NCBI GenBank assembly: GCA_037140955.1
Contig: JBAXDL010000001.1
Location: 114,319-178,318 of the forward strand
Source of the DNA: a bacterium
Lineage (GTDB): Bacteria; Patescibacteriota; Minisyncoccia; Moranbacterales; GWC2-37-73
Length of the DNA stretch: 64,000 bases
Reading direction: 5' to 3'
A program made the translations under genes and the position numbers. The notes beneath the pieces were generated by a model. That model had not been told where the DNA came from. It was given only the letters and a program-made list of their open reading frames with translations, and did not search any database. Shown in pieces: positions 4,946 through 34,556 of the stretch; the first letter of the stretch is position 1; the number at the start of each line of letters is the position of its first letter.

Positions 4946-5707
4946 TTATTTAATATCATTCCAAATCTTTTTAAAAACTTCTCGCATATTATGCGCCAGC
5001 ACGGCATCATGAATTTCCACCAGATAAAACGGTTTCTGACGAGTGACTATAACAACAAAATAATCCCCGATAGCCCAAGTTGTTGCCGAAAAATCCAAAT
5101 CCTTACCCCAGAATTTAATATTGCGCTCTTTAGGAAATTCTTCTTTGATTTTTTCTTCAATTTCTGATTGATTGCTTAACAGTTTTACATGCATATCAGG
5201 ATATTTTTTCCAAAACCAATCAATCCATTTTATATTATGCTCAACAAAACTTGGATCTTGAAATCCCCAAAATGTTTTGTCCGATCTTCGCATACTTTCA
5301 TACCAACAACGCTCTGTTTGCTTGAAAAGAAAATCCTCTAATTCATCCTCCTCAATAAAGCGTATTTTTGGCACAGAAAAACTTTGACTTTTTGGCATTT
5401 TTTCCAACTCTTCTGCCAACTTATTCGCAATTTTCTTCTTCTCTTTCAATTCTTCTTGCTCGCGATAAAACATTTCTTCTACATCTTCAGGCGATGAAGG
5501 AGAAACATACATGATCCTTGTTGTAATATCCTCAATAACAAGTCCTTTGTCCTTCAATTTTTCCAACAACACATATACCGTTGAACGATTGATATTAGTA
5601 GCTTTGGCAAGCCTTGCTGGCGTTGTTTTGCCTTGTTCAAAAAGGGCGAGATACACCTCGATTTCTTTTTCAGACAAGCCTAATTTTTGCAGTAATTCTT
5701 GTATCAT
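4946..5707 (-). CDS. TrmB-family HTH transcriptional regulator (paralog 1; divergent C-terminal domain)
   Basis: N-terminal LGLSEKEIEVYLALFEQG...RLAKATNINRSTVYVLLEKLKDKGLV winged-HTH typical of TrmB. Confidence 0.6.
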   Translation of the reverse strand: MIQELLQKLGLSEKEIEVYLALFEQGKTTPARLAKATNINRSTVYVLLEKLKDKGLVIEDITTRIMYVSPSSPEDVEEMFYREQEELKEKKKIANKLAEELEKMPKSQSFSVPKIRFIEEDELEDFLFKQTERCWYESMRRSDKTFWGFQDPSFVEHNIKWIDWFWKKYPDMHVKLLSNQSEIEEKIKEEFPKERNIKFWGKDLDFSATTWAIGDYFVVIVTRQKPFYLVEIHDAVLAHNMREVFKKIWNDIK

Positions 5708-5715
5708 ATTACTCT

Positions 5716-5744
5716 ATTTTAGCAGTTTATTAACTTTTTGTCAA
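5716..5744 (-). promoter_or_regulatory. promoter of TrmB paralog 1 (TTGACA-N17-TAAAAT) with duplicated TTGTCAACA direct repeat
   Basis: minus-strand reading TTGACAaagtgTTGACA-17nt-TAAAAT then 8 nt to the ATG; near-leaderless. Confidence 0.4.
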
Positions 5745-5819
5745 CACTTTGTCAACAGTTTTATTTGGCTTATTTAAAGGATTATTTAACAATATTTCTC
5801 TTAATTTGTTTACATACTA

Positions 5820-5848
5820 TTGACTATGTTGATAACTTACTATATACT
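5820..5848 (+). promoter_or_regulatory. sigma70-like promoter TTGACT-N17-TATACT driving the divergent small-ORF operon
   Basis: matches the spacing and -10 TATACT recurring at loci B and C; followed by a conserved ACG..GATGAAT +1 hairpin. Confidence 0.45.
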
Positions 5849-5918
5849 ACGTAGTCATGATGAATTAGCAATAATGATTCATGACCTCACAGTTCATTTT
5901 CAAATAATTAACAATACT

Positions 5919-5930
5919 AGTCGACGGACT
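5919..5930 (+). promoter_or_regulatory. leader hairpin AGTC-GACG-GACT immediately upstream of SD (copy A1)
   Basis: three copies in the window with compensatory stem changes; followed by TAAAACG..AGGAG and an ATG. Confidence 0.4.
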
Positions 5931-5949
5931 TAAAACGAGGAGGTGCGCC

Positions 5950-6168
5950 ATGGCAACACCATACGGGCAAATTACTACTGTAGTGCCGAGACGGGGCGGT
6001 CTCTCCATAGTTACAGAAAACTATGGAGATTCCGAGGACCACTGGGTTTTTGGAGATCGACGATCCAGACAAATTGCCAAAAGGCACTGGGTGCGTCAAT
6101 CAAACAAAGGCTCAGACTCGGGTGGAAACTATTGGCACACTTTCAAAAAATCTCCCATTGGAGGATGA
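5950..6168 (+). CDS. small hypothetical protein (72 aa, G/R-rich)
   Basis: strong SD GAGGAGG 6 nt before the ATG; lies in an unusually GC-rich segment. Confidence 0.4.
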   Translation: MATPYGQITTVVPRRGGLSIVTENYGDSEDHWVFGDRRSRQIAKRHWVRQSNKGSDSGGNYWHTFKKSPIGG

Positions 6169-6591
6169 GGAGATTAATAAACTTGAACTTTGACGGCGCT
6201 TCTGAATTCTCAGATCGCAATGGCTAGCCACCGTTATTGGGCTGCGGGGTGTGAAAGATCCTCGAAAACATAGACCAAGTTCATATATTGGCAAAGTTTA
6301 TGCCTCCATAATGAACCCAGTGGCAACGCATTTGCATAAGACTAATCAATATGTTGATTAGCAGCAGCGTTCTTTTAGTTGCCGAGTCTGTGTAATTCTT
6401 CAATCATTTAATATCTCGTCAATATTTTTTGATTGCGTAGTTTCTCCTGGCTATGTGAGGCCGAACGTTTTCGGTCAACAGGAAAAAAACAAAGGCAAGG
6501 AAAAATCCTTGTCTCTCTAATTGAAATAATTTCTTGAAAATTATTTCATAGGAGATAAAAGTTTTTCACAAACACTCAAAGGAGATGTGCC

Positions 6592-6834
6592 ATGGAAGCA
6601 ATCGTTACACTGTTTGAGTTAACCACGGAGCTGGAACTCTCATTAGCATTGATCAAGCTGGACAAAAAAGTAGAAGCTATATTGTCTGATGACAAACTTC
6701 GCTTTGAGCAATATCCTCATGATGAAAATCCATTTTACACAAACAATGCCAATTTACGTTGTAATGTTAGAGTAGAAGATGTTGTGACAATATTACAGAA
6801 CAAAATATTGATCATCAGAAAAATTTCAGTTTAA
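6592..6834 (+). CDS. small hypothetical protein (80 aa)
   Basis: SD AAAGGAG; acidic N-terminus. Confidence 0.4.
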   Translation: MEAIVTLFELTTELELSLALIKLDKKVEAILSDDKLRFEQYPHDENPFYTNNANLRCNVRVEDVVTILQNKILIIRKISV

Positions 6835-6843
6835 AAAAACTAA

Positions 6844-6855
6844 AGCCGACGGGCT
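6844..6855 (+). promoter_or_regulatory. leader hairpin AGCC-GACG-GGCT upstream of SD (copy A2)
   Basis: covaries with copies A1 and C. Confidence 0.4.
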
Positions 6856-6877
6856 AAAAACGCAAAGGAGTTGCACG

Positions 6878-7045
6878 ATGAATATTTTTGTAATTTTAGT
6901 TATGTGTTGGGCTGCTTGGTTACTATTGGCGCTTATCGTCTTGGTGACACTATACATTTTCCAGATTATTTACTACCTAGCTCTTTTTGGAGCAGGGCTA
7001 GGAATGATAATCGAAAAAGCGACAAGAAAGGAGACTATAAAATGA
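6878..7045 (+). CDS. 55-aa hydrophobic two-helix membrane peptide (MNIFVILVMCWAAWLLLALIVLVTLYIFQIIYYLALFGAGLGMIIEKATRKETIK)
   Basis: ATG 7 nt after AAAGGAG; strongly hydrophobic; preferred over the overlapping TTG-start frame 6871-7053. Confidence 0.4.
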   Translation: MNIFVILVMCWAAWLLLALIVLVTLYIFQIIYYLALFGAGLGMIIEKATRKETIK

Positions 7046-7078
7046 GGCGTTAGTCTATCATGACTATCGCCTTTTTTC
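7046..7078 (+). terminator. rho-independent terminator
   Basis: AGGCG..CGCCT stem followed by TTTTTT. Confidence 0.4.
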
Positions 7079-7121
7079 TTTTCTGCATTTTTACATTATA
7101 CATTATACAAAATACATTATA

Positions 7122-8015
7122 CTATCGTATTTCAATCCCCCTTAATGCCGCCACTCTCTCCTCAATCGGAGGATGTGTGGAAAAAAGTTTTGAAATGTTG
7201 CTACCCTTAAGCGGATTTGAAATGTATAGATGAGCTGTGGCGCGGTTTGCTGCTTCAAGTGGTTCTGGGTCAGCTGAAATTTTTTCCAAAGCCTTGGCAA
7301 GCCCTTCTGGATATCGTGTGAGGAGCGCAGCGGAAGCATCTGCCAAAAATTCTCTTTTGCGTGAGATGGCCACCTGAATCAACATGGCAGCAATTGGAGC
7401 CAAGATTGAAAGCACGATTGCCAAAATGAAAAAAATCATTTGCAATTGCCCGCCACCTTCATTGTCTGAACTTCTTTTACTGAAAATTCCATAGCGAAAC
7501 CAATCTGCCATCAAAGCAATAAATCCAACCAAAACGACAACAACTGTTGAAAGCAAAATGTCACGATTGCCAATGTGTGAAAGTTCATGCGCAATCACGC
7601 CTTCCAATTCGATTTTTTCAAGCTTGTCCAAGAGTCCGGTTGTCACACAAATCACTCCATGTTCAGGATCTCTTCCTGTTGCAAAAGCATTGGGTGCAGA
7701 GTCTTCAATGATATATATTTTTGGCGCCGGAAGACCAGCAGTTATGCACAGGTTTTCCACAAGGTGGTATAACTCCCTATTTTCCTCATGTGTAACCTCT
7801 TTTGCGCTACTCATAGAAAGCACAATTTTGTCACTCCACCAATATGAACCAAAACTCATGGCAATTGAAAACAAAACTGCACCATATAAAATCGAGCTGT
7901 TACCCATTGCTCCTGCAAAAACATAGCCCACGCCAATCACAAAAACAAGAAAACCTGAGATATATAACCAGGTTAATCTTGTGTTTTTGTCTGCTTGATC
8001 GTATAAAGTCGCCAT
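7122..8015 (-). CDS. htpX: zinc metalloprotease HtpX
   Basis: HELSHIGNRD (HEXXH) motif; 4 TM segments; C-terminal STHPPIEERV. Confidence 0.85.
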   Translation of the reverse strand: MATLYDQADKNTRLTWLYISGFLVFVIGVGYVFAGAMGNSSILYGAVLFSIAMSFGSYWWSDKIVLSMSSAKEVTHEENRELYHLVENLCITAGLPAPKIYIIEDSAPNAFATGRDPEHGVICVTTGLLDKLEKIELEGVIAHELSHIGNRDILLSTVVVVLVGFIALMADWFRYGIFSKRSSDNEGGGQLQMIFFILAIVLSILAPIAAMLIQVAISRKREFLADASAALLTRYPEGLAKALEKISADPEPLEAANRATAHLYISNPLKGSNISKLFSTHPPIEERVAALRGIEIR

Positions 8016-8017
8016 AA

Positions 8018-8569
8018 CTAAAATTGTACTTTTACATTTTCTTTTTCTGCCTCATCCGCTGCGAAAAATTCGCGAGCTACAAATCCAAGCATTCCTGCAA
8101 GCAAATTGGTTGGAAAAACTTGAAGCTTGGTGTTGAAGTCTCGCACGTTGCCATTATAAAACCTGCGAGAGGCTTGAATTTTGTCTTCAGTGTCGGCAAG
8201 TTCACGTTGAAGTTCCAAAAAGTTTTGATTAGCTTTCAAGTCTGGATAATTCTCAGAGACTGCAAACAAGGATTTCAATGTTCCAGAAAGCATGTTCTCG
8301 GCTTCCTGTTTTTCGCCTGTTGTTCCTGCGCTCATTGCTGCAGTTCTGGCTTTGGTCACATTTTCCAGCAATTCTTTTTCATGAGTGGCATATCCCTTCA
8401 CAGTGCTAATCAAATTCGGAATCAAATCATAACGACGTTTCAATTGCACATCAATATCACTCCAGGCCTCATCAACACGATTTTTGAGTGTAATTAGTCC
8501 GTTGTACATTCCTACCAAAACAAGTCCCAAAACAACTACCACTGCGACAATGATTAATCCAATTGACAT
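8018..8569 (-). CDS. lemA: LemA family protein
   Basis: N-terminal TM then the LemA signature NRVDEAWSDIDVQLKRRYDLIPNL. Confidence 0.8.
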   Translation of the reverse strand: MSIGLIIVAVVVVLGLVLVGMYNGLITLKNRVDEAWSDIDVQLKRRYDLIPNLISTVKGYATHEKELLENVTKARTAAMSAGTTGEKQEAENMLSGTLKSLFAVSENYPDLKANQNFLELQRELADTEDKIQASRRFYNGNVRDFNTKLQVFPTNLLAGMLGFVAREFFAADEAEKENVKVQF

Positions 8570-8773
8570 AAGAATTTTATGCCTACTGTTGTTGTAGACA
8601 TTGCTACCACAAAAGAGGCAAAATTAATTTATATTTATTATACAGCATATCTAATTATCAACAAACATCCACATCAAAAATACCTTTAAAACATAATACG
8701 CCCAGTGTCGTGCTAAAATTTCAATCTCTTTAATGTGACCACTAAACGTGCTATACTGAAAATGTAAGTACTT

Positions 8774-9244
8774 TTGTTTTTAAATAATTTTAATAAAAAT
8801 ATGCTAAAAGCAATTGCTCCCTATGCCGTGTTTCTCATTCCAATTATTGTTGGAATAATCATTCAGACAATCAAGTTCGCATTGTACAGCATTAAACATG
8901 GTTTCAATATTCGCTATGCCCTGACGCATGGTCACATGCCAAGCGCGCACACTGCCCTTGCTATTTCATTGGTAACTTCCGTTGGACACTATGAAGGATT
9001 TGGCGATGCCTCCTTTGCAATTGCTATGGTCGTGGCTTTCATCATCATTGATGATGCCACCAGACTTCGCATGCATCTTGGTGATCAAGGAAGATACTTG
9101 AACATGTTAATAGAACAGTTAAACATCAGTGAGGAGCAATACCCAAGACTCAAAGAACGCATGGGCCACAGAGTTAGCGAGGTCATCGTTGGTGGAATTG
9201 CAGGCTTCTTTCTGACAATACTCTTGATTCAAATTTTCATTTAA
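8774..9244 (+). CDS. divergent PAP2-like membrane protein (DUF212/YuiD-like)
   Basis: 156 aa; HGHMPSAHTAL motif; 3-4 TM. Confidence 0.5.
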   Translation: MFLNNFNKNMLKAIAPYAVFLIPIIVGIIIQTIKFALYSIKHGFNIRYALTHGHMPSAHTALAISLVTSVGHYEGFGDASFAIAMVVAFIIIDDATRLRMHLGDQGRYLNMLIEQLNISEEQYPRLKERMGHRVSEVIVGGIAGFFLTILLIQIFI

Positions 9245-19293: not shown

Positions 19294-20730
19294 CTATTTA
19301 TTAACATCAATCAAAAATTTTCTCAGATTTCTTTTGCCAACTATTATGGGATATTTTAGATGTGAGCGATTTATCAAGGTCACTCTAGTTGGAATAATAA
19401 GATTATCCATGACTAATGTTATTTTAATGGTTGGTCGATAAGTTGCGCCACTAGCAGACTTGATCACAATGGTGCTTTCAAGATGAGGAATGTGTTTATA
19501 GATATCCCAGCGCTCTTTTTTACTAAGATGAGCAATGTCTGCATATGAAGTTTGAATTTCGCGAAAAGCTTTCACAGTGTCTTCGAAGCCTAGCTGCTCA
19601 GCCAAGTCCATGTCTATTGAAGTAAAGCCAGCCCCCGTGTCAATTTTCGCTTCAACCTCAACAAATTTTCCATTGAGGCCAATCAGCTTCACTTTTTCAA
19701 TTGCAGCAATAACTTTTCTTCCTGAAATTTCCTCCAACTCTTCTTCAATTTCACCACCAAACAAATCTTGACCCACACGAACTCCACGCTGAGCTGTTTT
19801 TATCTTCAAACCCTTGATGCGTTCCAGCCTTTCGCGCAAGCCACTCAAATTGGCAACCTGAATTGAGAGACCTGGACGCGCATTGATTTCCAAAAAAACA
19901 GGACCACGCTCACGATCAATGGCAACATCAGCACCCAAAAATCCCATGCCAGAAATTTCTTGAGCCTTAACAGCCAAAAGCAACATTTCTTTCCAATATG
20001 GAATTTTGATTCCAGAAAGCAACATACGAGTGCCTGGGACATAGTCTATAATCTTTCCCTTTCCAAGCACAGCTGTTGTTGTCACACCAGTTGCCAAATC
20101 AATTCCAATGCCAATTCCACCTTGTTGCAAGTTGGCCTTTCCGCCAGATTCCTTTGTTGGAAGACGAAGCATGGCCATCACCGGAATACGATTAAAAACA
20201 ATCACGCGAATATCAGGAATTCCCTTATAAGCATAGGGCTTGAACAATTTCAAAAGCGTTAGGCGCTCTTCAAAAAATGCAATGTCTGGCATGTTGGCCA
20301 AAGAAAATGCACCATCCAAAATATTTAAAATATGACTTTTTAAGTCTTGCACTGTGACCTTGCTTCCATCTGACTTTATCCAAACAGGCAATGGAAATTC
20401 GGTTTCCCCATTTTCATTGATCAATCCTTTCCCATTGTTTTTCTTTCTTCCATATACAACTAAAATTCCTCCACCACCATATCCACGATTTGGCTTGAGA
20501 GCAAAACTTGCAGGCAAAGAAAACCAATCGAAATTTTCCAATTCATCTGCTGTTCTTATTTTTGCAAGCAATTTTGGCACTGGAATTCCAGCCTTTTTGA
20601 GCATCCTTTTGCTCAAAATTTTGTCATCAGCCAATTTCTTTGCTTTTTTTCTATTGTATGGACGAATATAATCAAGATTGCGAGCATTCATGCCGAGCAA
20701 TTTGTTTCCATTTTTGATAAATTCAAACAT
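19294..20730 (-). CDS. RimK-like alpha-L-glutamate-ligase-type ATP-grasp fused to a retropepsin-like (DUF785) C-terminal domain
   Basis: N-terminal LKPNRGYGGGGILVV ATP-grasp; C-terminal AKIDTGAGFTSID aspartyl-protease-like motif. Confidence 0.6.
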   Translation of the reverse strand: MFEFIKNGNKLLGMNARNLDYIRPYNRKKAKKLADDKILSKRMLKKAGIPVPKLLAKIRTADELENFDWFSLPASFALKPNRGYGGGGILVVYGRKKNNGKGLINENGETEFPLPVWIKSDGSKVTVQDLKSHILNILDGAFSLANMPDIAFFEERLTLLKLFKPYAYKGIPDIRVIVFNRIPVMAMLRLPTKESGGKANLQQGGIGIGIDLATGVTTTAVLGKGKIIDYVPGTRMLLSGIKIPYWKEMLLLAVKAQEISGMGFLGADVAIDRERGPVFLEINARPGLSIQVANLSGLRERLERIKGLKIKTAQRGVRVGQDLFGGEIEEELEEISGRKVIAAIEKVKLIGLNGKFVEVEAKIDTGAGFTSIDMDLAEQLGFEDTVKAFREIQTSYADIAHLSKKERWDIYKHIPHLESTIVIKSASGATYRPTIKITLVMDNLIIPTRVTLINRSHLKYPIIVGKRNLRKFLIDVNK

Positions 20731-28589: not shown

Positions 28590-28773
28590 ATTTTTTATAT
28601 TGTTGTGGAAAATATTTCAACATTTTTATTATATCAAACAAGCCACTATTTGTCAATATCTATATTTTAAAAACAATATGCTTCCACATAAATTGACAAA
28701 ATAATATATACTACGTTGTTAAGATGAATCAGCAAAAACATCCTAACAACATTTAACCACTAACTTCAAATAT

Positions 28774-28983: not shown

Positions 28984-29143
28984 TCGGCAAGAAAAAAATC
29001 ACCTTCTTGCCTCTCCTGTTGAGTTAGTCAAATTTTGATTGATTCATAAGAGAAAAGTTCTTTAAAATTTTTACAACCCATAACGACACGGAGCTCTCAC
29101 TTAGTGAGGCACGATTACGGAATATGGGGAGAGGGAGAACAAA

Positions 29144-29323: not shown

Positions 29324-29357
29324 AAAGGCGGAACGTAAAACGTTCCGCCTCTTTTTT
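29324..29357 (+). terminator. terminator AAAGGCGGAACG-TAAAA-CGTTCCGCCTCTTTTTT (copy 1 of an identical 34-bp element)
   Basis: same sequence at 31446-31480. Confidence 0.6.
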
Positions 29358-29397
29358 GTTTCAATTTCGTATTTTACTAAAAACTAATAATTATAAA

Positions 29398-30174
29398 CTA
29401 TTTAACGCTATTCCAAACAATCTCAAACATTGATTTGTATGTCTGCGCAACATCACTGCTTTCAATTACCACAGCCATAGGCTCATCTTTAAAAGAAAAG
29501 ATGGCCAATTTGTTTCCAAAAATAATATTATCGGTTGGGAAAAGACACTCTTTTGGTGCAAATTTGATCTGATGAATGCCTTGCTCTCTTCTGTTTGTAT
29601 ATTCAATAGATTCCTTGTCTGATTGTAAAAGTTCGCGCACCCTTGTTTGATTTTTGGCAATATCGGCAAAATGTTTTTCTGCTTTTGCCAAAAGCTCTTT
29701 TGGAATTGCACCCAATGAGGCAAAGATGTCGATTTCTTTTTCTTTAAATATTTCATCATACAATTTCACTACGCTTTCACCACCTTGATAATATGTCACC
29801 TTTGGCTTTTCTTTCTTAGTATTGAACATTGCCATAAGCTCTGGCATATTGGCTTTTATAAGTTGCTGTTTCTCTCTCTGCTCTTCCAAAAGTTGTTCAG
29901 GGGAATTGGCAGTATAGAGAACTTTTGCCTTGCGTGGCAAAAGCATTACCAATCCTTTCATGCGAAGTTCTTCCAAGAGCAGATAGGTTGTTGGTCTTTT
30001 TGTCCCAGCTTTGACCGAAATTGCAGGAACTGAGCCTTTTCCCATCTGCAAAACAGCCAAGTATACTTTGGCTTGTTTTTCATTGAGTCCTAAATTCATC
30101 AGCACTTCTTCGAGTTGCATATTCTTTTCTTTGTCATTCCGGGCTTGACCCGGAATCCAGGCCCGCATTTTCAA
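29398..30174 (-). CDS. TrmB-family HTH transcriptional regulator (paralog 3); true start probably at 30120 (MQLEEVL...)
   Basis: LGLNEKQAKVYLAVLQMG...TKRPTTYLLLEELRMKGLV; the first 18 codons of the ORF are read through the MITE-like repeat. Confidence 0.6.
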   Translation of the reverse strand: MKMRAWIPGQARNDKEKNMQLEEVLMNLGLNEKQAKVYLAVLQMGKGSVPAISVKAGTKRPTTYLLLEELRMKGLVMLLPRKAKVLYTANSPEQLLEEQREKQQLIKANMPELMAMFNTKKEKPKVTYYQGGESVVKLYDEIFKEKEIDIFASLGAIPKELLAKAEKHFADIAKNQTRVRELLQSDKESIEYTNRREQGIHQIKFAPKECLFPTDNIIFGNKLAIFSFKDEPMAVVIESSDVAQTYKSMFEIVWNSVK

Positions 30175-30342: not shown

Positions 30343-30371
30343 TGACACTTTTGCTATTTAGCTGTATACTA
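30343..30371 (+). promoter_or_regulatory. promoter TTGACA-N17-TATACT with conserved ACACTGTTAAGATGAATTAACA +1 hairpin
   Basis: same architecture as 5820-5848. Confidence 0.45.
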
Positions 30372-30453
30372 CACTGTTAAGATGAATTAACAAATCTCAA
30401 TAAAAGTTCTTTCAAAATTTAATCACCTAAACCCAAATGAAAGGAGAGCTACC

Positions 30454-30699: not shown

Positions 30700-30804
30700 T
30701 TAAATTTCAGGCGAGAAAGTTTAACAAAACTTCTCTCGCCTCTCTCATTGAGTTCATACTAAGGGTGAATTCACAGGAGAATAGTTCATTAAAAACTACA
30801 CAAT

Positions 30805-30816
30805 GGCCGACGGGCC
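30805..30816 (+). promoter_or_regulatory. leader hairpin GGCC-GACG-GGCC upstream of SD (copy C)
   Basis: covaries with copies A1 and A2; followed by TTAAACGAAAAGGAG and an ATG. Confidence 0.4.
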
Positions 30817-30837
30817 TTAAACGAAAAGGAGATTATC

Positions 30838-31413
30838 ATGCGAAATTATCAAATTAACAATTGTGCTGAATGCAAAAAAACTTTGGAAAAAAATGAGAAC
30901 GTAAATATCCGTCATGTATACGGAATGCCAGAAGCTATATGTGATTCATGCTGGAATAAAAGAAAAGTTTTACGGTCTTACATTATTTCCGATCTTCCTC
31001 AGGAAATTTATCACGAAGAAGATGTATACCTAGGTTACTTCCCTGCAGTCATACTAAGTGAAGTTTGTGAAATAGAAGAATTTCAGGGATTAAACAGTGA
31101 TGGTAGAATAAAGAGGGATAATAGTGGCTGTTATTTGGACTGTTATTATCCATCGTGCTCAGAAGACATTCAGAGTGATTTATTTGAAGAAATTTGGAAA
31201 AATAAAAACACTAAAAGTTGGAAGAAAGAGGTTTGGCATTTTGCGGGAGATTCTTCCTGGAGCATTAATGTTTACAGTCAATATTATTCATCGCAAAATA
31301 TTAAAATTGCACGGATTTACCAAGAAGCTAATATGGAAGTAATTTTTCCAGAAAGCTTACGACCTTTCATTTGCAGAGAAGCAATTGAAAAAGATATGTT
31401 CTTTCGAGACTAG
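30838..31413 (+). CDS. Cys-rich hypothetical protein with N-terminal zinc-ribbon-like motif (191 aa)
   Basis: NNCAECKK...CDSCWNK; later CYLDCYYPSC. Confidence 0.5.
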   Translation: MRNYQINNCAECKKTLEKNENVNIRHVYGMPEAICDSCWNKRKVLRSYIISDLPQEIYHEEDVYLGYFPAVILSEVCEIEEFQGLNSDGRIKRDNSGCYLDCYYPSCSEDIQSDLFEEIWKNKNTKSWKKEVWHFAGDSSWSINVYSQYYSSQNIKIARIYQEANMEVIFPESLRPFICREAIEKDMFFRD

Positions 31414-31445: not shown

Positions 31446-31480
31446 AAAGGCGGAACGTAAAACGTTCCGCCTCTTTTTTT
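31446..31480 (+). terminator. terminator, copy 2 of the identical 34-bp element
   Basis: AAAGGCGGAACGTAAAACGTTCCGCCTCTTTTTTT. Confidence 0.6.
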
Positions 31481-31529
31481 ATTCTGCTTTTATACAAGAT
31501 ACTTTATACAATATACATTCTACATTTTT

Positions 31530-34500
31530 CTACACCACCCTCTCCACCTCCTCCAAACTCGTCTCCCCTTCCAAAACTTTCAATAATCCATCTTGCTCCA
31601 TGGTGATCATGCCATTTTCAACTGCCTTGTCACGAATTTGTGAAGATGATGATCCTTGCGTGATCAATTCTTCAATGTCGCGATCAACCACCAAAACTTC
31701 GCTGATTGTTGTGCGTCCTTTATATCCAATATTATTGCATTTTTCGCAACCATTAGGTTCAAAAACTTTTTCTATTGCCGGAACGATGATACCTGATTTT
31801 TCTGAAATACTTTCCAAGATTTTTTTCATGCTAGCAACCTCATCTTGATTTAATGCTCTTTCCTTTTTGCAATTACAAAGTTTTCGCACCAATCGCTGAG
31901 CCATCAAAGCATTGACCGCTGTGGCCAAATCATCAGAGCGAACACCCATGTTGATCAAGCGCTGAATTGAGCCAGCAGCATCATTTGTGTGCAGTGTAGA
32001 GAGAATTGAATGACCAGTCAGCGCTGCCTGAATTGCAATGTTGGCAGTTTCCTCATCACGAATTTCACCAATCATCATGATATCAGGATTTTGACGAAGC
32101 AATGCTCGCAAAGCTGTTGAAAAAGAATATCCCTCTTTGTCATTAACAGATGTTTGCAAAATTCCATCCAGCTGATATTCAATCGGGTCTTCAACTGTGA
32201 TGATCTTTACTTCTGGATTGTTCAAAACTTTAAGTGCACTATACAACGTGGTTGTTTTTCCAGACCCAGTTGGTCCAGTGGTCAAGAAAACTCCATTTGG
32301 TTTTTTCGTTTCAGTCAAAATCTTTTCCAAATTTTGTTTCCTGATTCCCAATTTTTCAAGATCAAGCGCAACTGATGATTTGTTGAGAAGTCGCATCACC
32401 ACCGTTTCCCCATATCCTCCCAAAATTATTGAAACACGAACATCAACTTTTGTGTCAGTGATGTGTTTGTATGGCTTTTCCAGGGCAATTGAAAAACGAG
32501 AATCCATCACGCCACCACGCACTTCAGTGGAAAAGCCACTCAAAAACTTGATGCTTCCAAGCAGGCTAGGATATTCATTCAAAGGTATTTCCGCAATTGT
32601 TTGCAAGATTCCATCCATGCGATAACGAACTTTCACACTCTTTTCTTCTGGTTCAATGTGAATGTCACCAACATTCAACAGCAAACTGCTGGCAAAGATA
32701 TATTTAGCACTACTTTTTTGATTTGATTTTTCAATCAATTCCTTGAGATTTTCTCTGGGTGAAATTTTCTCTTCCACAAGCACCATGTCTTCTTCTGAAA
32801 TATCAATTGAGCGAGACATTGATTGTGCCATCAATTTTTCATAAATCTCTTCCAAAAATTCTGTCTGTCCTGTTGCGCGCCAAACTTCATCCATTGATGT
32901 AAGCCCTTCAATGGCTTTCAAAATTCCGTCTTGTGCCATGGTGATCATTCCATCTTCCAAGGCTGTTTGTGCAATTTCTCGTTCTCCACCCATTTCCAAA
33001 ATCAATTTTTCAATGTTCTCTGAAATTGTCAGCACCTCAAAAATTCCAATGCGCCCCTTGAATCCAAGTCCATGACATTTGTCACAACCAACTGGACGAT
33101 AAAGTTTTTCAATATTTTTTGGTATTTCAATTTTTGCTTTGGGAGAAATGATGGCAAGAATTTTCTTGATACTATCAGTAGTTTCCTTGGCTGGAACATA
33201 TTCCTCCATGCAATTTGAGCACAATTTTCGCACCAAGCGTTGTGCAATAAAAGCATTCACAGAAGGAGCAATAATGTTTGGCTTCACTCCAAGTTCAATA
33301 AAGCGAGGAATTGAAGCTGGCGCATTGTTGGTGTGCAAAGTTGAAAGCACAAGATGACCCGTAAGGGCAGCGTTCACTGAAATATCAGCTGTTTCCTCAT
33401 CACGAATTTCACCAACCAAAATAACATCAGGATCTTGACGCACAATCGCGCGAAGACCTTCCGCAAAAGTATAGTTTCGATCTTTGGCAATTTGTGTTTG
33501 TGAAATATTTTTCACTTCATATTCAATCGGATCTTCAATTGTGATTATTTTTACACCGGCTGTGTTTAACTTGTTAACAAGTGCATAAAGTGTGGTCGTT
33601 TTCCCGCTGCCAGTTGGTCCTGTTGTCAAAATCATACCATGCGGTTTTGCAACTTCTCTTTGCACGCTTTCATAGGCCAAGCCTCGCAATCCCAAATCTT
33701 CCACGGAAAGCATAATATCAGCCTGACTCAAAAGCCTCATAACAACTGACTCTCCATGATTTCCTGGAATAATATTTGTTCTCACATTTATCTTACCTTC
33801 ATCCATCTCAACCGAAAAATGACCATCTTGCGCAATGTCGCGAATGTTGATTTTCATCTTTCCCATCATCTTGATGCGGGACAAAATGAAACGATAGGTT
33901 TCGTTTGGAAATTTTCCAACATCCTGCAAAACACCATCGATGCGAAAACGCATTCTGACATCTTCCTCTTGTGGTTCAAAATGAACATCACTGGCCTTCA
34001 TTTTCACAGCGCCAGCCATGATAATTGAAATGATTTGAGTTGTTGGAATTTCCTGAATTCTTTTTTTCAGATCCAGCATGTTTCCAAAGTCTTTTTCAAA
34101 TTTTTCCAAATCTTCACCACTCAAAGTGATTTGCATTGCTTCCAGATTTTCCAACATTGGAATTTCAGCATATCTTTTCCAGATTTTTTCCAGAGAAGAT
34201 TTTGAAATTACATACAAATAAACAACCCAGCCTTTTTCAGACTTGAGCGCTTCAACATATTCGATTGTTTTTTTATTTGTCGGATCAACAACTCCAATTC
34301 TGGCTTCCTTACCTGCTTTTTGAAAAACACAAAGACCAAATTCTCTTGATTCTTTTTCGTCAATAACTCTCAAATCATCCGCGGCAACTGGAAAAATATT
34401 CAAATCAACATAGGAAAGATTGTTAGCATTGGCAACTTGAGCAGCTTGCTCCTCTTCTGATTGCCCTCGCATGCGCTGCATAATCTTTTCAGATTGTTCG

Positions 34501-34556
34501 TCTTTTTCGGTAGAATGTATTAATTTTTTATTTGAAATTTTTACCATATACCTCAA
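31530..34556 (-). CDS. tandem-duplicated GspE/PilB-type secretion/pilus ATPase (two complete ATPase modules in one 1008-aa polypeptide)
   Basis: two sets of N2 domain + Walker A GPTGSGKTTTLY + Asp box + Walker B (DPDVILVGEIRD / NPDIMMIGEIRD) + His box (GHLVLSTLHTN / GHSILSTLHTN) + tetracysteine (CSNC..CDKC / CNCK..CEKC). Confidence 0.8.
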   Translation of the reverse strand: MRYMVKISNKKLIHSTEKDEQSEKIMQRMRGQSEEEQAAQVANANNLSYVDLNIFPVAADDLRVIDEKESREFGLCVFQKAGKEARIGVVDPTNKKTIEYVEALKSEKGWVVYLYVISKSSLEKIWKRYAEIPMLENLEAMQITLSGEDLEKFEKDFGNMLDLKKRIQEIPTTQIISIIMAGAVKMKASDVHFEPQEEDVRMRFRIDGVLQDVGKFPNETYRFILSRIKMMGKMKINIRDIAQDGHFSVEMDEGKINVRTNIIPGNHGESVVMRLLSQADIMLSVEDLGLRGLAYESVQREVAKPHGMILTTGPTGSGKTTTLYALVNKLNTAGVKIITIEDPIEYEVKNISQTQIAKDRNYTFAEGLRAIVRQDPDVILVGEIRDEETADISVNAALTGHLVLSTLHTNNAPASIPRFIELGVKPNIIAPSVNAFIAQRLVRKLCSNCMEEYVPAKETTDSIKKILAIISPKAKIEIPKNIEKLYRPVGCDKCHGLGFKGRIGIFEVLTISENIEKLILEMGGEREIAQTALEDGMITMAQDGILKAIEGLTSMDEVWRATGQTEFLEEIYEKLMAQSMSRSIDISEEDMVLVEEKISPRENLKELIEKSNQKSSAKYIFASSLLLNVGDIHIEPEEKSVKVRYRMDGILQTIAEIPLNEYPSLLGSIKFLSGFSTEVRGGVMDSRFSIALEKPYKHITDTKVDVRVSIILGGYGETVVMRLLNKSSVALDLEKLGIRKQNLEKILTETKKPNGVFLTTGPTGSGKTTTLYSALKVLNNPEVKIITVEDPIEYQLDGILQTSVNDKEGYSFSTALRALLRQNPDIMMIGEIRDEETANIAIQAALTGHSILSTLHTNDAAGSIQRLINMGVRSDDLATAVNALMAQRLVRKLCNCKKERALNQDEVASMKKILESISEKSGIIVPAIEKVFEPNGCEKCNNIGYKGRTTISEVLVVDRDIEELITQGSSSSQIRDKAVENGMITMEQDGLLKVLEGETSLEEVERVV

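Follow-up and report, generated by a model that had tools for sequence, protein, structure and literature searches.

The window, a stretch of 64,000 nucleotides, is ordinary bacterial chromosome with a G+C content of 36–39%, and it encodes pyruvate kinase, MurE, a class A PBP, DNA polymerase I and a type IV pilus ATPase. A short hairpin occurs in it three times, each time just 5′ of a Shine-Dalgarno sequence (SD). The stem-loop-stem segments read in the window are AGTCGACGGACT at 5919–5930 (+) for copy 1, AGCCGACGGGCT at 6844–6855 (+) for copy 2 and GGCCGACGGGCC at 30805–30816 (+) for copy 3. Together with the A-rich flank behind it, the hairpin makes up an element of 19 nt, for which two helices (S1 and S2) and two loops (L1 and L3) are predicted. 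The features at the three copies are the following.

5820–5848, + strand: sigma-70-like promoter TTGACT-17-TATACT of the copy-1 transcript (consensus match only)
5919–5937, + strand: predicted pseudoknot of copy 1 (covariance model, 30.6 bits; architecture from covariation in related copies)
5919–5922 with 5927–5930, + strand: S1 of copy 1 (AGUC/GACU)
5923–5924, + strand: L1 of copy 1 (GA)
5925–5926 with 5936–5937, + strand: S2 of copy 1 (CG with CG)
5931–5935, + strand: L3 of copy 1 (UAAAA)
5938–5943, + strand: SD AGGAGG of copy 1, directly abutting the pseudoknot (read from the sequence)
5950–6168, + strand: 72-aa ORF behind copy 1, without Pfam or PHROG family
6844–6862, + strand: predicted pseudoknot of copy 2, AGCC-GA-CG-GGCU-AAAAA-CG (covariance model, 31.2 bits)
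6865–6870, + strand: SD AAGGAG of copy 2
6878–7045, + strand: 55-aa hydrophobic ORF behind copy 2, without Pfam family
30805–30823, + strand: predicted pseudoknot of copy 3, GGCC-GA-CG-GGCC-UUAAA-CG (covariance model, 33.6 bits)
30826–30831, + strand: SD AAGGAG of copy 3
30838–31413, + strand: 191-aa ORF with N-terminal CxxC...CxxC behind copy 3, without Pfam or PHROG family

In an alignment of the three leaders, similarity is limited to a block consisting of stem, loop, stem, WW-AAACG and SD. The consensus of the element is NGNC-GA-CG-GNCN-WWAAA-CG, with the SD following 0–5 nt further on; the constant tail is WW-AAACG, in which a fixed distance of 2 nt separates the stem from AAACG. The AGGAG lies 0, 3 and 3 nt behind the tail in copies 1, 2 and 3, and 7, 7 and 6 nt before the start codons at 5950, 6878 and 30838. 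The original prediction had assigned to all copies the flank TAAAACG-N3-AGGAG-N6/7-ATG, of which the last spacing is accurate, whereas TAAAACG is found in copy 1 only (AAAAACG in copy 2, TTAAACG in copy 3) and the three-nucleotide gap in copies 2 and 3 only. The hairpins themselves are present at the positions given for them, and both compensatory stem changes claimed among the three copies are real. The stem alone is predicted to fold at −3.1, −5.8 and −8.0 kcal/mol in copies 1–3, and the predicted fold shows no pairing between element and SD, which leaves the SD unsequestered.

The recurrence is beyond chance. The pattern RGYCGACGGRCY has three matches in the window and none in any of 100 dinucleotide-preserving shuffles, and CGACGG occurs four times on both strands of the window, three of these inside the three copies. 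Neither a relaxed structural scan of the window nor a covariance-model search with filters off brought out an additional copy; the three copies score 30–34 bits against a model whose seed included these very copies, and the next best match scores 11 bits.

Copy 1 is located about 70 nt downstream of the sigma-70-like promoter, and the start of the 72-aa ORF behind it is confirmed because the N-terminal MATP(Y/F)G is conserved in its homologues. Copy 2 starts 10 nt past the stop codon of the ORF at 6592–6834 and therefore serves an intercistronic ribosome-binding site, and copy 3 lies about 105 nt past the stop codon of its upstream ORF. No homologue of a scaffolding protein or a tail chaperone is encoded in the window, and a megablast of window positions 5000–9000 against phage records gave no match. 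The 72-aa protein has just two other homologues among 5.8 billion sequences, and the leaders of both carry ordinary ribosome-binding sites without the element, although one of the two contigs is syntenic and shares the pyruvate kinase, the TrmB gene and the promoter with the window. Of the three window copies, two are situated in regions divergent from genes for TrmB-family regulators; in six metagenomic relatives of the TrmB locus the element is absent. A link between element and TrmB regulator was thus rejected, as relatives keep the regulator and have no element. Since orthologous leaders do without it, the element behaves as a portable ribosome-binding-site module and not as an ancestral part of these genes. 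Judged from these comparisons, the window copies are apparently recent additions, by which three small genes acquired a phage-type translation signal that is lacking in their orthologues.

The surroundings of copies 1 and 3 hold some further repeats. A near-identical −10 box and early leader (TATACTACG..G(T/A)..GATGAAT..A(G/A)CAA) is common to three transcription units, at 5843–5875, 28707–28736 and 30365–30394, the first of which also has an inverted repeat GTCATGA...TCATGAC at about 5855–5887. TrmB-family genes are found at 4946–5707 (−) and 29398–30174 (−), and together these units and genes resemble paralogous cassettes of regulator plus small gene that share an operator. A strong intrinsic terminator (AAAGGCGGAACGTAAAACGTTCCGCCTCTTTTTT) occurs twice, at 29324–29362 and 31446–31484 (39 nt, 95% identical, 2122 nt apart), bracketing a TrmB gene, an 81-aa ORF and the 191-aa ORF of copy 3, which suggests a duplicated or inserted cassette around copy 3. 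In addition, a hairpin without a U-tail, followed by TCTC..TTGAGTT, is found at 28984–29030 and 30709–30760 (GGCAAGAA..TTCTTGCC versus GGCGAGAA..TTCTCGCC); the two versions differ by compensatory changes and come after the first small ORF in each of two paralogous cassettes, where they may act as an attenuator or a processing site.

The element is widespread in viral contigs. A first scan of IMG/VR, with CGACGG, AAACG, GGAG and the middle G-C pair fixed, gave at least 120 loci; among the matches listed, pair 3–10 is kept in 119 of 121 and nearly all precede a start codon. A second scan of viral contigs, with the outer three stem pairs left free, gave at least 113 distinct copies. Among the 113 listed, pair 2–11 is GC in 110 and AU in 3, and pair 3–10 is CG in 66, UA in 33, GC in 10 and AU in 4, so that all four Watson-Crick types are used; neither pair shows a single mismatch. 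The outermost pair 1–12 is Watson-Crick or wobble in 79% of the same listed copies, the mismatches being A/G in 21 and others in 3. Each free position was assessed only in the subset where the search pattern left that position free. The selection on RNA structure that had been proposed from three sequences consequently holds far beyond the window, with pairs 2–11 and 3–10 in Watson-Crick form in 113 of 113 listed copies.

An alignment of the copies shows that the single-stranded G5, A6 and A15–A17 are invariant. Position 20, the first base after AAACG, is a G in 166 of the 181 listed phage and genome copies, including upstream tandem units that have no SD, and may extend stem 2 or pair with A6. 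In the window copies it is A, C and A, so these copies may not be fully typical.

The original prediction regarded GACG as a tetraloop. This part of it did not survive, since the last two bases of the loop covary with the CG of the AAACG tail. To see this, the commonest stem, AGCC/GGCU, was fixed while loop positions 7–8 and tail positions 18–19 were freed, and 48 copies with a proper SD and start context were taken from the matches listed. They fall into the following loop/tail combinations.

CG/CG: 22 copies, both pairs formed
CA/UG: 7 copies, both pairs formed
CG/UG: 3 copies, both pairs formed, one a wobble
GG/CC: 2 copies, both pairs formed
UG/CA: 1 copy, both pairs formed
AG/UU: 1 copy, both pairs formed, one a wobble
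Other combinations: 12 copies, not both pairs formed

S2 is thus paired in 36 of the 48 listed copies, as compared with a permutation mean of 24.7, and none of 20,000 permutations in which the tails were shuffled among the sequences reaches 36. Position 8 against position 18 gives GC 26, AU 12, GU 5 and AC 3 among the matches listed (Fisher p = 4.6e-5), although S2 has 2 bp that are nearly invariant and its covariation comes from about 20 informative copies that are phylogenetically non-independent. A formal count on a 102-sequence alignment with the bracket string ...((((..[[)))).....]]... gave 94.6% paired cells and double changes in five of six pairs; none of 500 shuffles is as good, and every slid register collapses. 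The supposed tetraloop is therefore one half of a second helix. From this covariation, hairpin and AAACG flank are predicted to be one compact unit, a minimal H-type pseudoknot with S1 of 4 bp (positions 1–4 with 9–12), L1 of GA, S2 of 2 bp (C7–G19 and G8–C18) and L3 of WWAAA. S2 continues directly into S1 with zero nucleotides between, and the geometry is that of the smallest known H-type pseudoknots. The two helices by which such a fold is recognised, S1 and S2, are each supported by compensatory changes.

The other structural model, that of the original prediction, is a plain stem-loop: the GACG loop is conserved, the A-rich spacer has no relation to it, and no pseudoknot forms. Stem 1 is indeed predicted to be stable alone, S2 has just two pairs, and the 12 of 48 informative listed copies in which one or both S2 pairs are missing would be easily understood. 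It does not explain why the spacing from stem to AAACG is fixed, nor the covariation of position 8 with 18 and the existence of the GG/CC and UG/CA variants. It also has to contend with larger pseudoknots of the same layout (S1 of 3–4 bp, an A-rich WUAAAC loop 3 and S2 of 4–6 bp), which are found within 70 nt upstream in 55 of 146 distinct listed phage loci as against 11 in shuffled controls. The covariation of their longer S2 is unambiguous (CGUCA/UGACG, CGGCA/UGCCG, CGAUA/UAUCG, CGGU/ACCG and UGCACA/UGUGCA). We therefore consider the plain stem-loop improbable. A hammerhead core, brought to mind by CUGAUGA in some of the larger upstream units, was ruled out because those positions vary.

The placement of the element is constant as well. 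An SD lies within 12 nt in 162 of 181 distinct hairpin-plus-AAACG copies among the matches listed, with GGAG at 0 nt in 87 and at 1–5 nt in 75, and the remaining 19 all belong to tandem arrays, as upstream units. The connection with translation starts that had been drawn from the three leaders is accordingly borne out. The window copies are solitary minimal units, and some viral loci have two or three tandem copies of the minimal unit. Triple pseudoknot arrays stand before a single scaffolding gene in the viral loci L004 (~420–512), L050, L290 and L309, where the upstream units are followed by GGAA(U) and no full SD. In a group of gut phage contigs (L273 309–391, L283 2340–2422, L297; L080, L098) the element comes directly after a tRNA gene and before a mini-ORF of three codons, AUG CCG GAA UAA, and 60 nt downstream a second copy stands before a gene that begins with AUG CCG GGA, a duplication that resembles a leader peptide and hints at more elaborate control. 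A search of the viral loci for unbiased secondary copies with an SD gave eight matches, mostly chance.

In phages the gene served usually encodes a scaffolding protein, and sometimes a tail chaperone or a product of no known kind. When 72 distinct downstream proteins of the listed viral loci were compared with Pfam, 25 belonged to PF06810 (Phage_scaffold, formerly GP20) and 20 to PF14265 (scaffolding Gp46), so that scaffolding proteins account for 45 of the 72, and three were tail assembly chaperones. The element lies immediately 5′ of the scaffolding gene in Bacillus phage Mgbh1 (gp16), Bacillus phage phi18-2 (GP05) and Mycobacterium phage Muddy (gp8), and Mgbh1 has a second copy before the tail chaperone gene gp26; SPP1 gene 11 is without the element. 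An N-terminal motif, KxFTQxxxDxxxxxRxxR, is common to PF06810, PF14265 and many family-less downstream proteins, often after a prohead-protease cleavage motif of the LNLQLFAE type. A scan of a genome collection, dominated by high-G+C chance matches so that the resulting host list is rough, gave convincing copies in contigs assigned to Lactobacillaceae, Christensenellales, Oscillospiraceae, Saccharibacteria or Patescibacteria, Spirochaetia and others, assignments of metagenome bins that may be wrong for phage-derived contigs. In genome contigs the element is also found before genes without a phage family. The high-G+C chance matches of this collection show neither pairing nor a start codon and serve as a negative control. 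Salmonella Jerseyvirus matches found by BLAST with the 19-nt sequence were judged to be chance, since they are inside a tail-chaperone ORF, about 70 nt past its slippery site, and have no AAACG tail.

No Rfam 15 family matches the element, GP20-a and GP20-b included. At the gathering score no relevant family was found on the window or on 15 viral loci with scaffolding genes, and at permissive E-values none on the window leaders and L035 (E ≤ 10) or on Mgbh1, Muddy and phi18-2 (E ≤ 1). The sole Rfam alignment that touches the element is a sub-threshold one of RF01079 with the ...AAACGG tail in L035 (15.2 bits, E = 3.3, gathering score 50). The literature was searched for the motif, for pseudoknots in scaffold leaders and for RNA motifs of DUF4355, and no description was found there, nor one of an SD-abutting mini-pseudoknot of this sequence, its second helix or copies on non-phage genes.

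Several known RNAs resemble the element in part. GP20-a (RF02991) and GP20-b (RF03003) are candidate cis-regulatory RNAs directly 5′ of GP20-family scaffolding genes, which is the commonest context of the element; their models, at the gathering score or at permissive E-values, match neither the window nor any of 18 loci. The text of a 2023 catalogue mentions six further unnamed candidate structured RNAs within 25 nt upstream of GP20 genes (PMC10690425). One of these may overlap the element; none is described there as an SD-abutting mini-pseudoknot or as lying on non-phage genes (PMC10690425). In T4 gene 32 and E. coli rpsO/S15, as here, an H-type pseudoknot is located in the mRNA leader at the ribosome-binding site. 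These knots couple translation to the free pool of the encoded protein; they are of greater size, each belongs to a single gene and the start region lies within or beside them, whereas the element serves many unrelated genes. The SAS of cluster K mycobacteriophages has a sequence of its own, the 13-bp GGGATAGGAGCCC, different from that of the element. It is likewise a short motif that includes or abuts the SD and recurs before the starts of several genes, and its function is presumed to concern translation initiation (PMC3203893). Unlike the element, it has no covarying stem or pseudoknot, and it is restricted to one phage cluster.

The leader stem-loop of aprE, the STAB-SD of cryIIIA and ermC share with the element a leader structure with nearby ribosome binding, which in those cases protects the downstream mRNA. 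They are, however, simple hairpins or SD-like sequences at the 5′ end of a transcript, with neither a sequence family nor a pseudoknot. In geometry the element is almost the same as the −1 frameshift pseudoknots of luteovirus type (BWYV; RF01079, 'RF_site3'), both having a stem 1 of 4–5 bp, a loop 1 of 2 nt, a stem 2 of 2–3 G-C pairs and an A-rich loop ending in ...AAACGG. The luteoviral knots lie 5–9 nt past an in-frame slippery heptamer, whereas the element is found in leaders and spacers directly 5′ of the SD: copy 1 is in a 5′ UTR, and copies 2 and 3 are past the stop codons of the ORFs before them. As it does not lie at such a place in a reading frame, the element has no recoding role. 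Guanidine-II (mini-ykkC) has two hairpins with ACGR tetraloops closed by G-C pairs; in the window the GACG is closed by C-G, the copies are single and no Rfam model matches.

What, then, does the element do? It probably sets the strength with which the downstream gene is translated. With some reserve, we favour the reading that it is a cis-acting enhancer or insulator of the ribosome-binding site that has no dedicated partner; its enhancing direction and its contact with the ribosome are what we infer. The pseudoknot would keep the SD and the start codon single-stranded and shielded from upstream sequence, L3 (WWAAA) presumably lying in the minor groove of stem 1, and a rigid helical stack would thereby be set directly beside the SD:anti-SD helix on the 30S platform. 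Binding of the 30S subunit would be raised and stabilised and hence, as a secondary effect, survival of the mRNA. The targets would be cistrons in need of strong expression independent of the upstream neighbour, for instance scaffolding genes that follow a portal gene, or genes inside a small operon like the one at 6844. Docking of a structured leader on the 30S platform is known from E. coli rpsO, and in Bacillus mRNAs are stabilised when a 5′ structure is combined with a bound ribosome (the aprE leader and the cryIIIA STAB-SD). As the contexts have no phage protein in common and phage head genes are missing from the window, the most economical partner would be the translation apparatus; two scaffold families, tail chaperones, unrelated genes and varied hosts are all served, and therefore a universal partner such as the ribosome fits. 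Against an enhancer it must be said that the invariant unpaired G5, A6 and A15–A17 would equally suit recognition by a protein, that a generic enhancer does not specifically predict so strong an enrichment before scaffolding genes, and that many strongly expressed genes, such as SPP1 gene 11, have no such element. Extended pairing of the AAACG tail with the 3′ end of 16S rRNA was checked by hand and does not fit.

A more far-reaching form of the enhancer reading is conceivable, although we hold it to be rather doubtful. The 19-nt element would be a triplex pseudoknot that docks on the 30S platform or stacks coaxially on the SD:anti-SD helix and so boosts initiation, a portable, protein-independent module for ribosome recruitment in bacteria and phages of several phyla. 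As such it would correspond, in minimal and prokaryotic form, to the translation enhancers of viruses, and would have been copied onto genes unrelated to one another, the three of the window among them.

The main rival to the enhancer, a serious one if on balance unlikely, is an operator at which a trans-acting RNA-binding protein would occlude or expose the SD, with either the scaffolding protein as autorepressor or a conserved host factor in that part. There is a precedent in P22, where scaffold synthesis is autoregulated and the scaffolding protein gp8 is a translational autorepressor. The preponderance of scaffolding genes (45 of the 72 listed downstream proteins, and many more with the shared basic N-terminal motif) would be expected of such an operator, as would the invariance of the single-stranded G5, A6 and AAA. 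The place by the SD is operator-like, tandem arrays of two or three units suit cooperative binding, and in Mgbh1 the scaffold and the tail chaperone, both of them assembly chaperones, each have a copy before them. Should the operator hypothesis hold, the basic, helix-like KxFTQxxxDxxxxxRxxR is a candidate RNA-binding segment. Yet three copies reside in a window that encodes no homologue of either chaperone, and unrelated genes lie downstream of the element in contigs assigned to Saccharibacteria, Spirochaetia, Oscillospiraceae and others. Moreover, one RNA-binding specificity would have to be common to two different scaffold families and to hosts of two phyla or more.

The element could also act on mRNA decay, as a barrier to a 5′-to-3′ exonuclease of the RNase J1 type or as a mark for endonucleolytic cleavage, so that the downstream cistron (scaffold and capsid) outlives the upstream one and initiation is not affected directly. 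This is unlikely. It would suit the intercistronic junctions at which expression steps up, from portal or protease to scaffold and at copy 2 with its stop codon 10 nt away, and the element is often just 3′ of a terminator-like hairpin; RNase J, moreover, is present in Bacillota and Actinomycetota, to which most of the hosts belong. But a knot of 4 + 2 bp is small for blocking an exonuclease, the sequence data give no sign of a 5′ end at the element, and a barrier does not require the tight coupling to the SD at 0–5 nt.

A small-molecule riboswitch of the preQ1-I type, in which a ligand-dependent minimal pseudoknot controls the adjacent SD, is highly improbable. The plan is similar: preQ1-I (RF00522) is also a very small H-type pseudoknot with a short stem 1, an A-rich 3′ loop along stem 1 and a stem 2 that ends at or next to the SD, and loop nucleotides of the larger upstream units could form a pocket. 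In the element, however, S2 and S1 adjoin without a loop, which leaves no room for a junction pocket; the conserved ligand-pairing C is missing, the SD is outside the fold and no Rfam riboswitch model matches even at E ≤ 10. Furthermore, the genes downstream are those of structural phage proteins involved in morphogenesis, or family-less, rather than of queuosine metabolism or of other metabolism and transport. The element would work like the leader knots of preQ1-I, gene 32 and rpsO and looks like the luteoviral frameshift knots, and it differs from each of them in the features that define it.

A DNA-level feature, be it a promoter, a site for a transcription factor such as the neighbouring TrmB-family regulators (to which two of the three window copies lie divergent) or a fragment of a dispersed repeat, is hardly credible, since the central CGACGG is not palindromic, all copies are oriented alike relative to the downstream gene, stem complementarity is kept through all four pair types as no protein-DNA site requires, relatives with the same TrmB genes have no element, and the high-GC chance matches in genomes neither pair nor precede a start codon. 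Promoter readings of ECF, SigB and sigma-54 type, made by eye, were dropped because the spacings are inconsistent and the stem covaries. An intrinsic terminator was likewise rejected: the stem is followed by WWAAACG and not by T's, and the sites are absent from the terminator scan.

If the enhancer reading is right, the element is among the smallest conserved RNA folds known, with a strict rule of position abutting the SD and a host range that takes in phages of Bacillota and Actinomycetota as well as contigs assigned to CPR bacteria. It would explain the step-up of expression at the portal-to-scaffold boundary in many tailed phages or, if the operator reading is the true one, the autoregulation of scaffolding proteins. 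A 19-nt insulator or enhancer of ribosome-binding sites would be of use in synthetic biology, for Gram-positive hosts and mycobacteria; Muddy, one of the carriers of the element, has been used therapeutically. In genome annotation, the element would sharply mark true start codons as well as scaffolding genes without detectable homology.

Elsewhere in the window, a gene for a large serine recombinase (CcrB/XisF-like; 403–1767, +) adjoins a tRNA-Ser(GGA) gene (1934–2019, −), and an integrated element may have its edge here, where the window starts. The ORF at 31530–34556 (−) encodes a type II/IV secretion ATPase of 1008 aa whose T2SSE profile is matched in two separate stretches, with weak extra NTPase and Toprim matches between them, and may carry an insertion or intein or be a fusion. 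At 19294–20730 (−), a RimK-related protein resembling alpha-L-glutamate ligases is fused to a C-terminal retropepsin-like aspartic peptidase domain of the RloA type.
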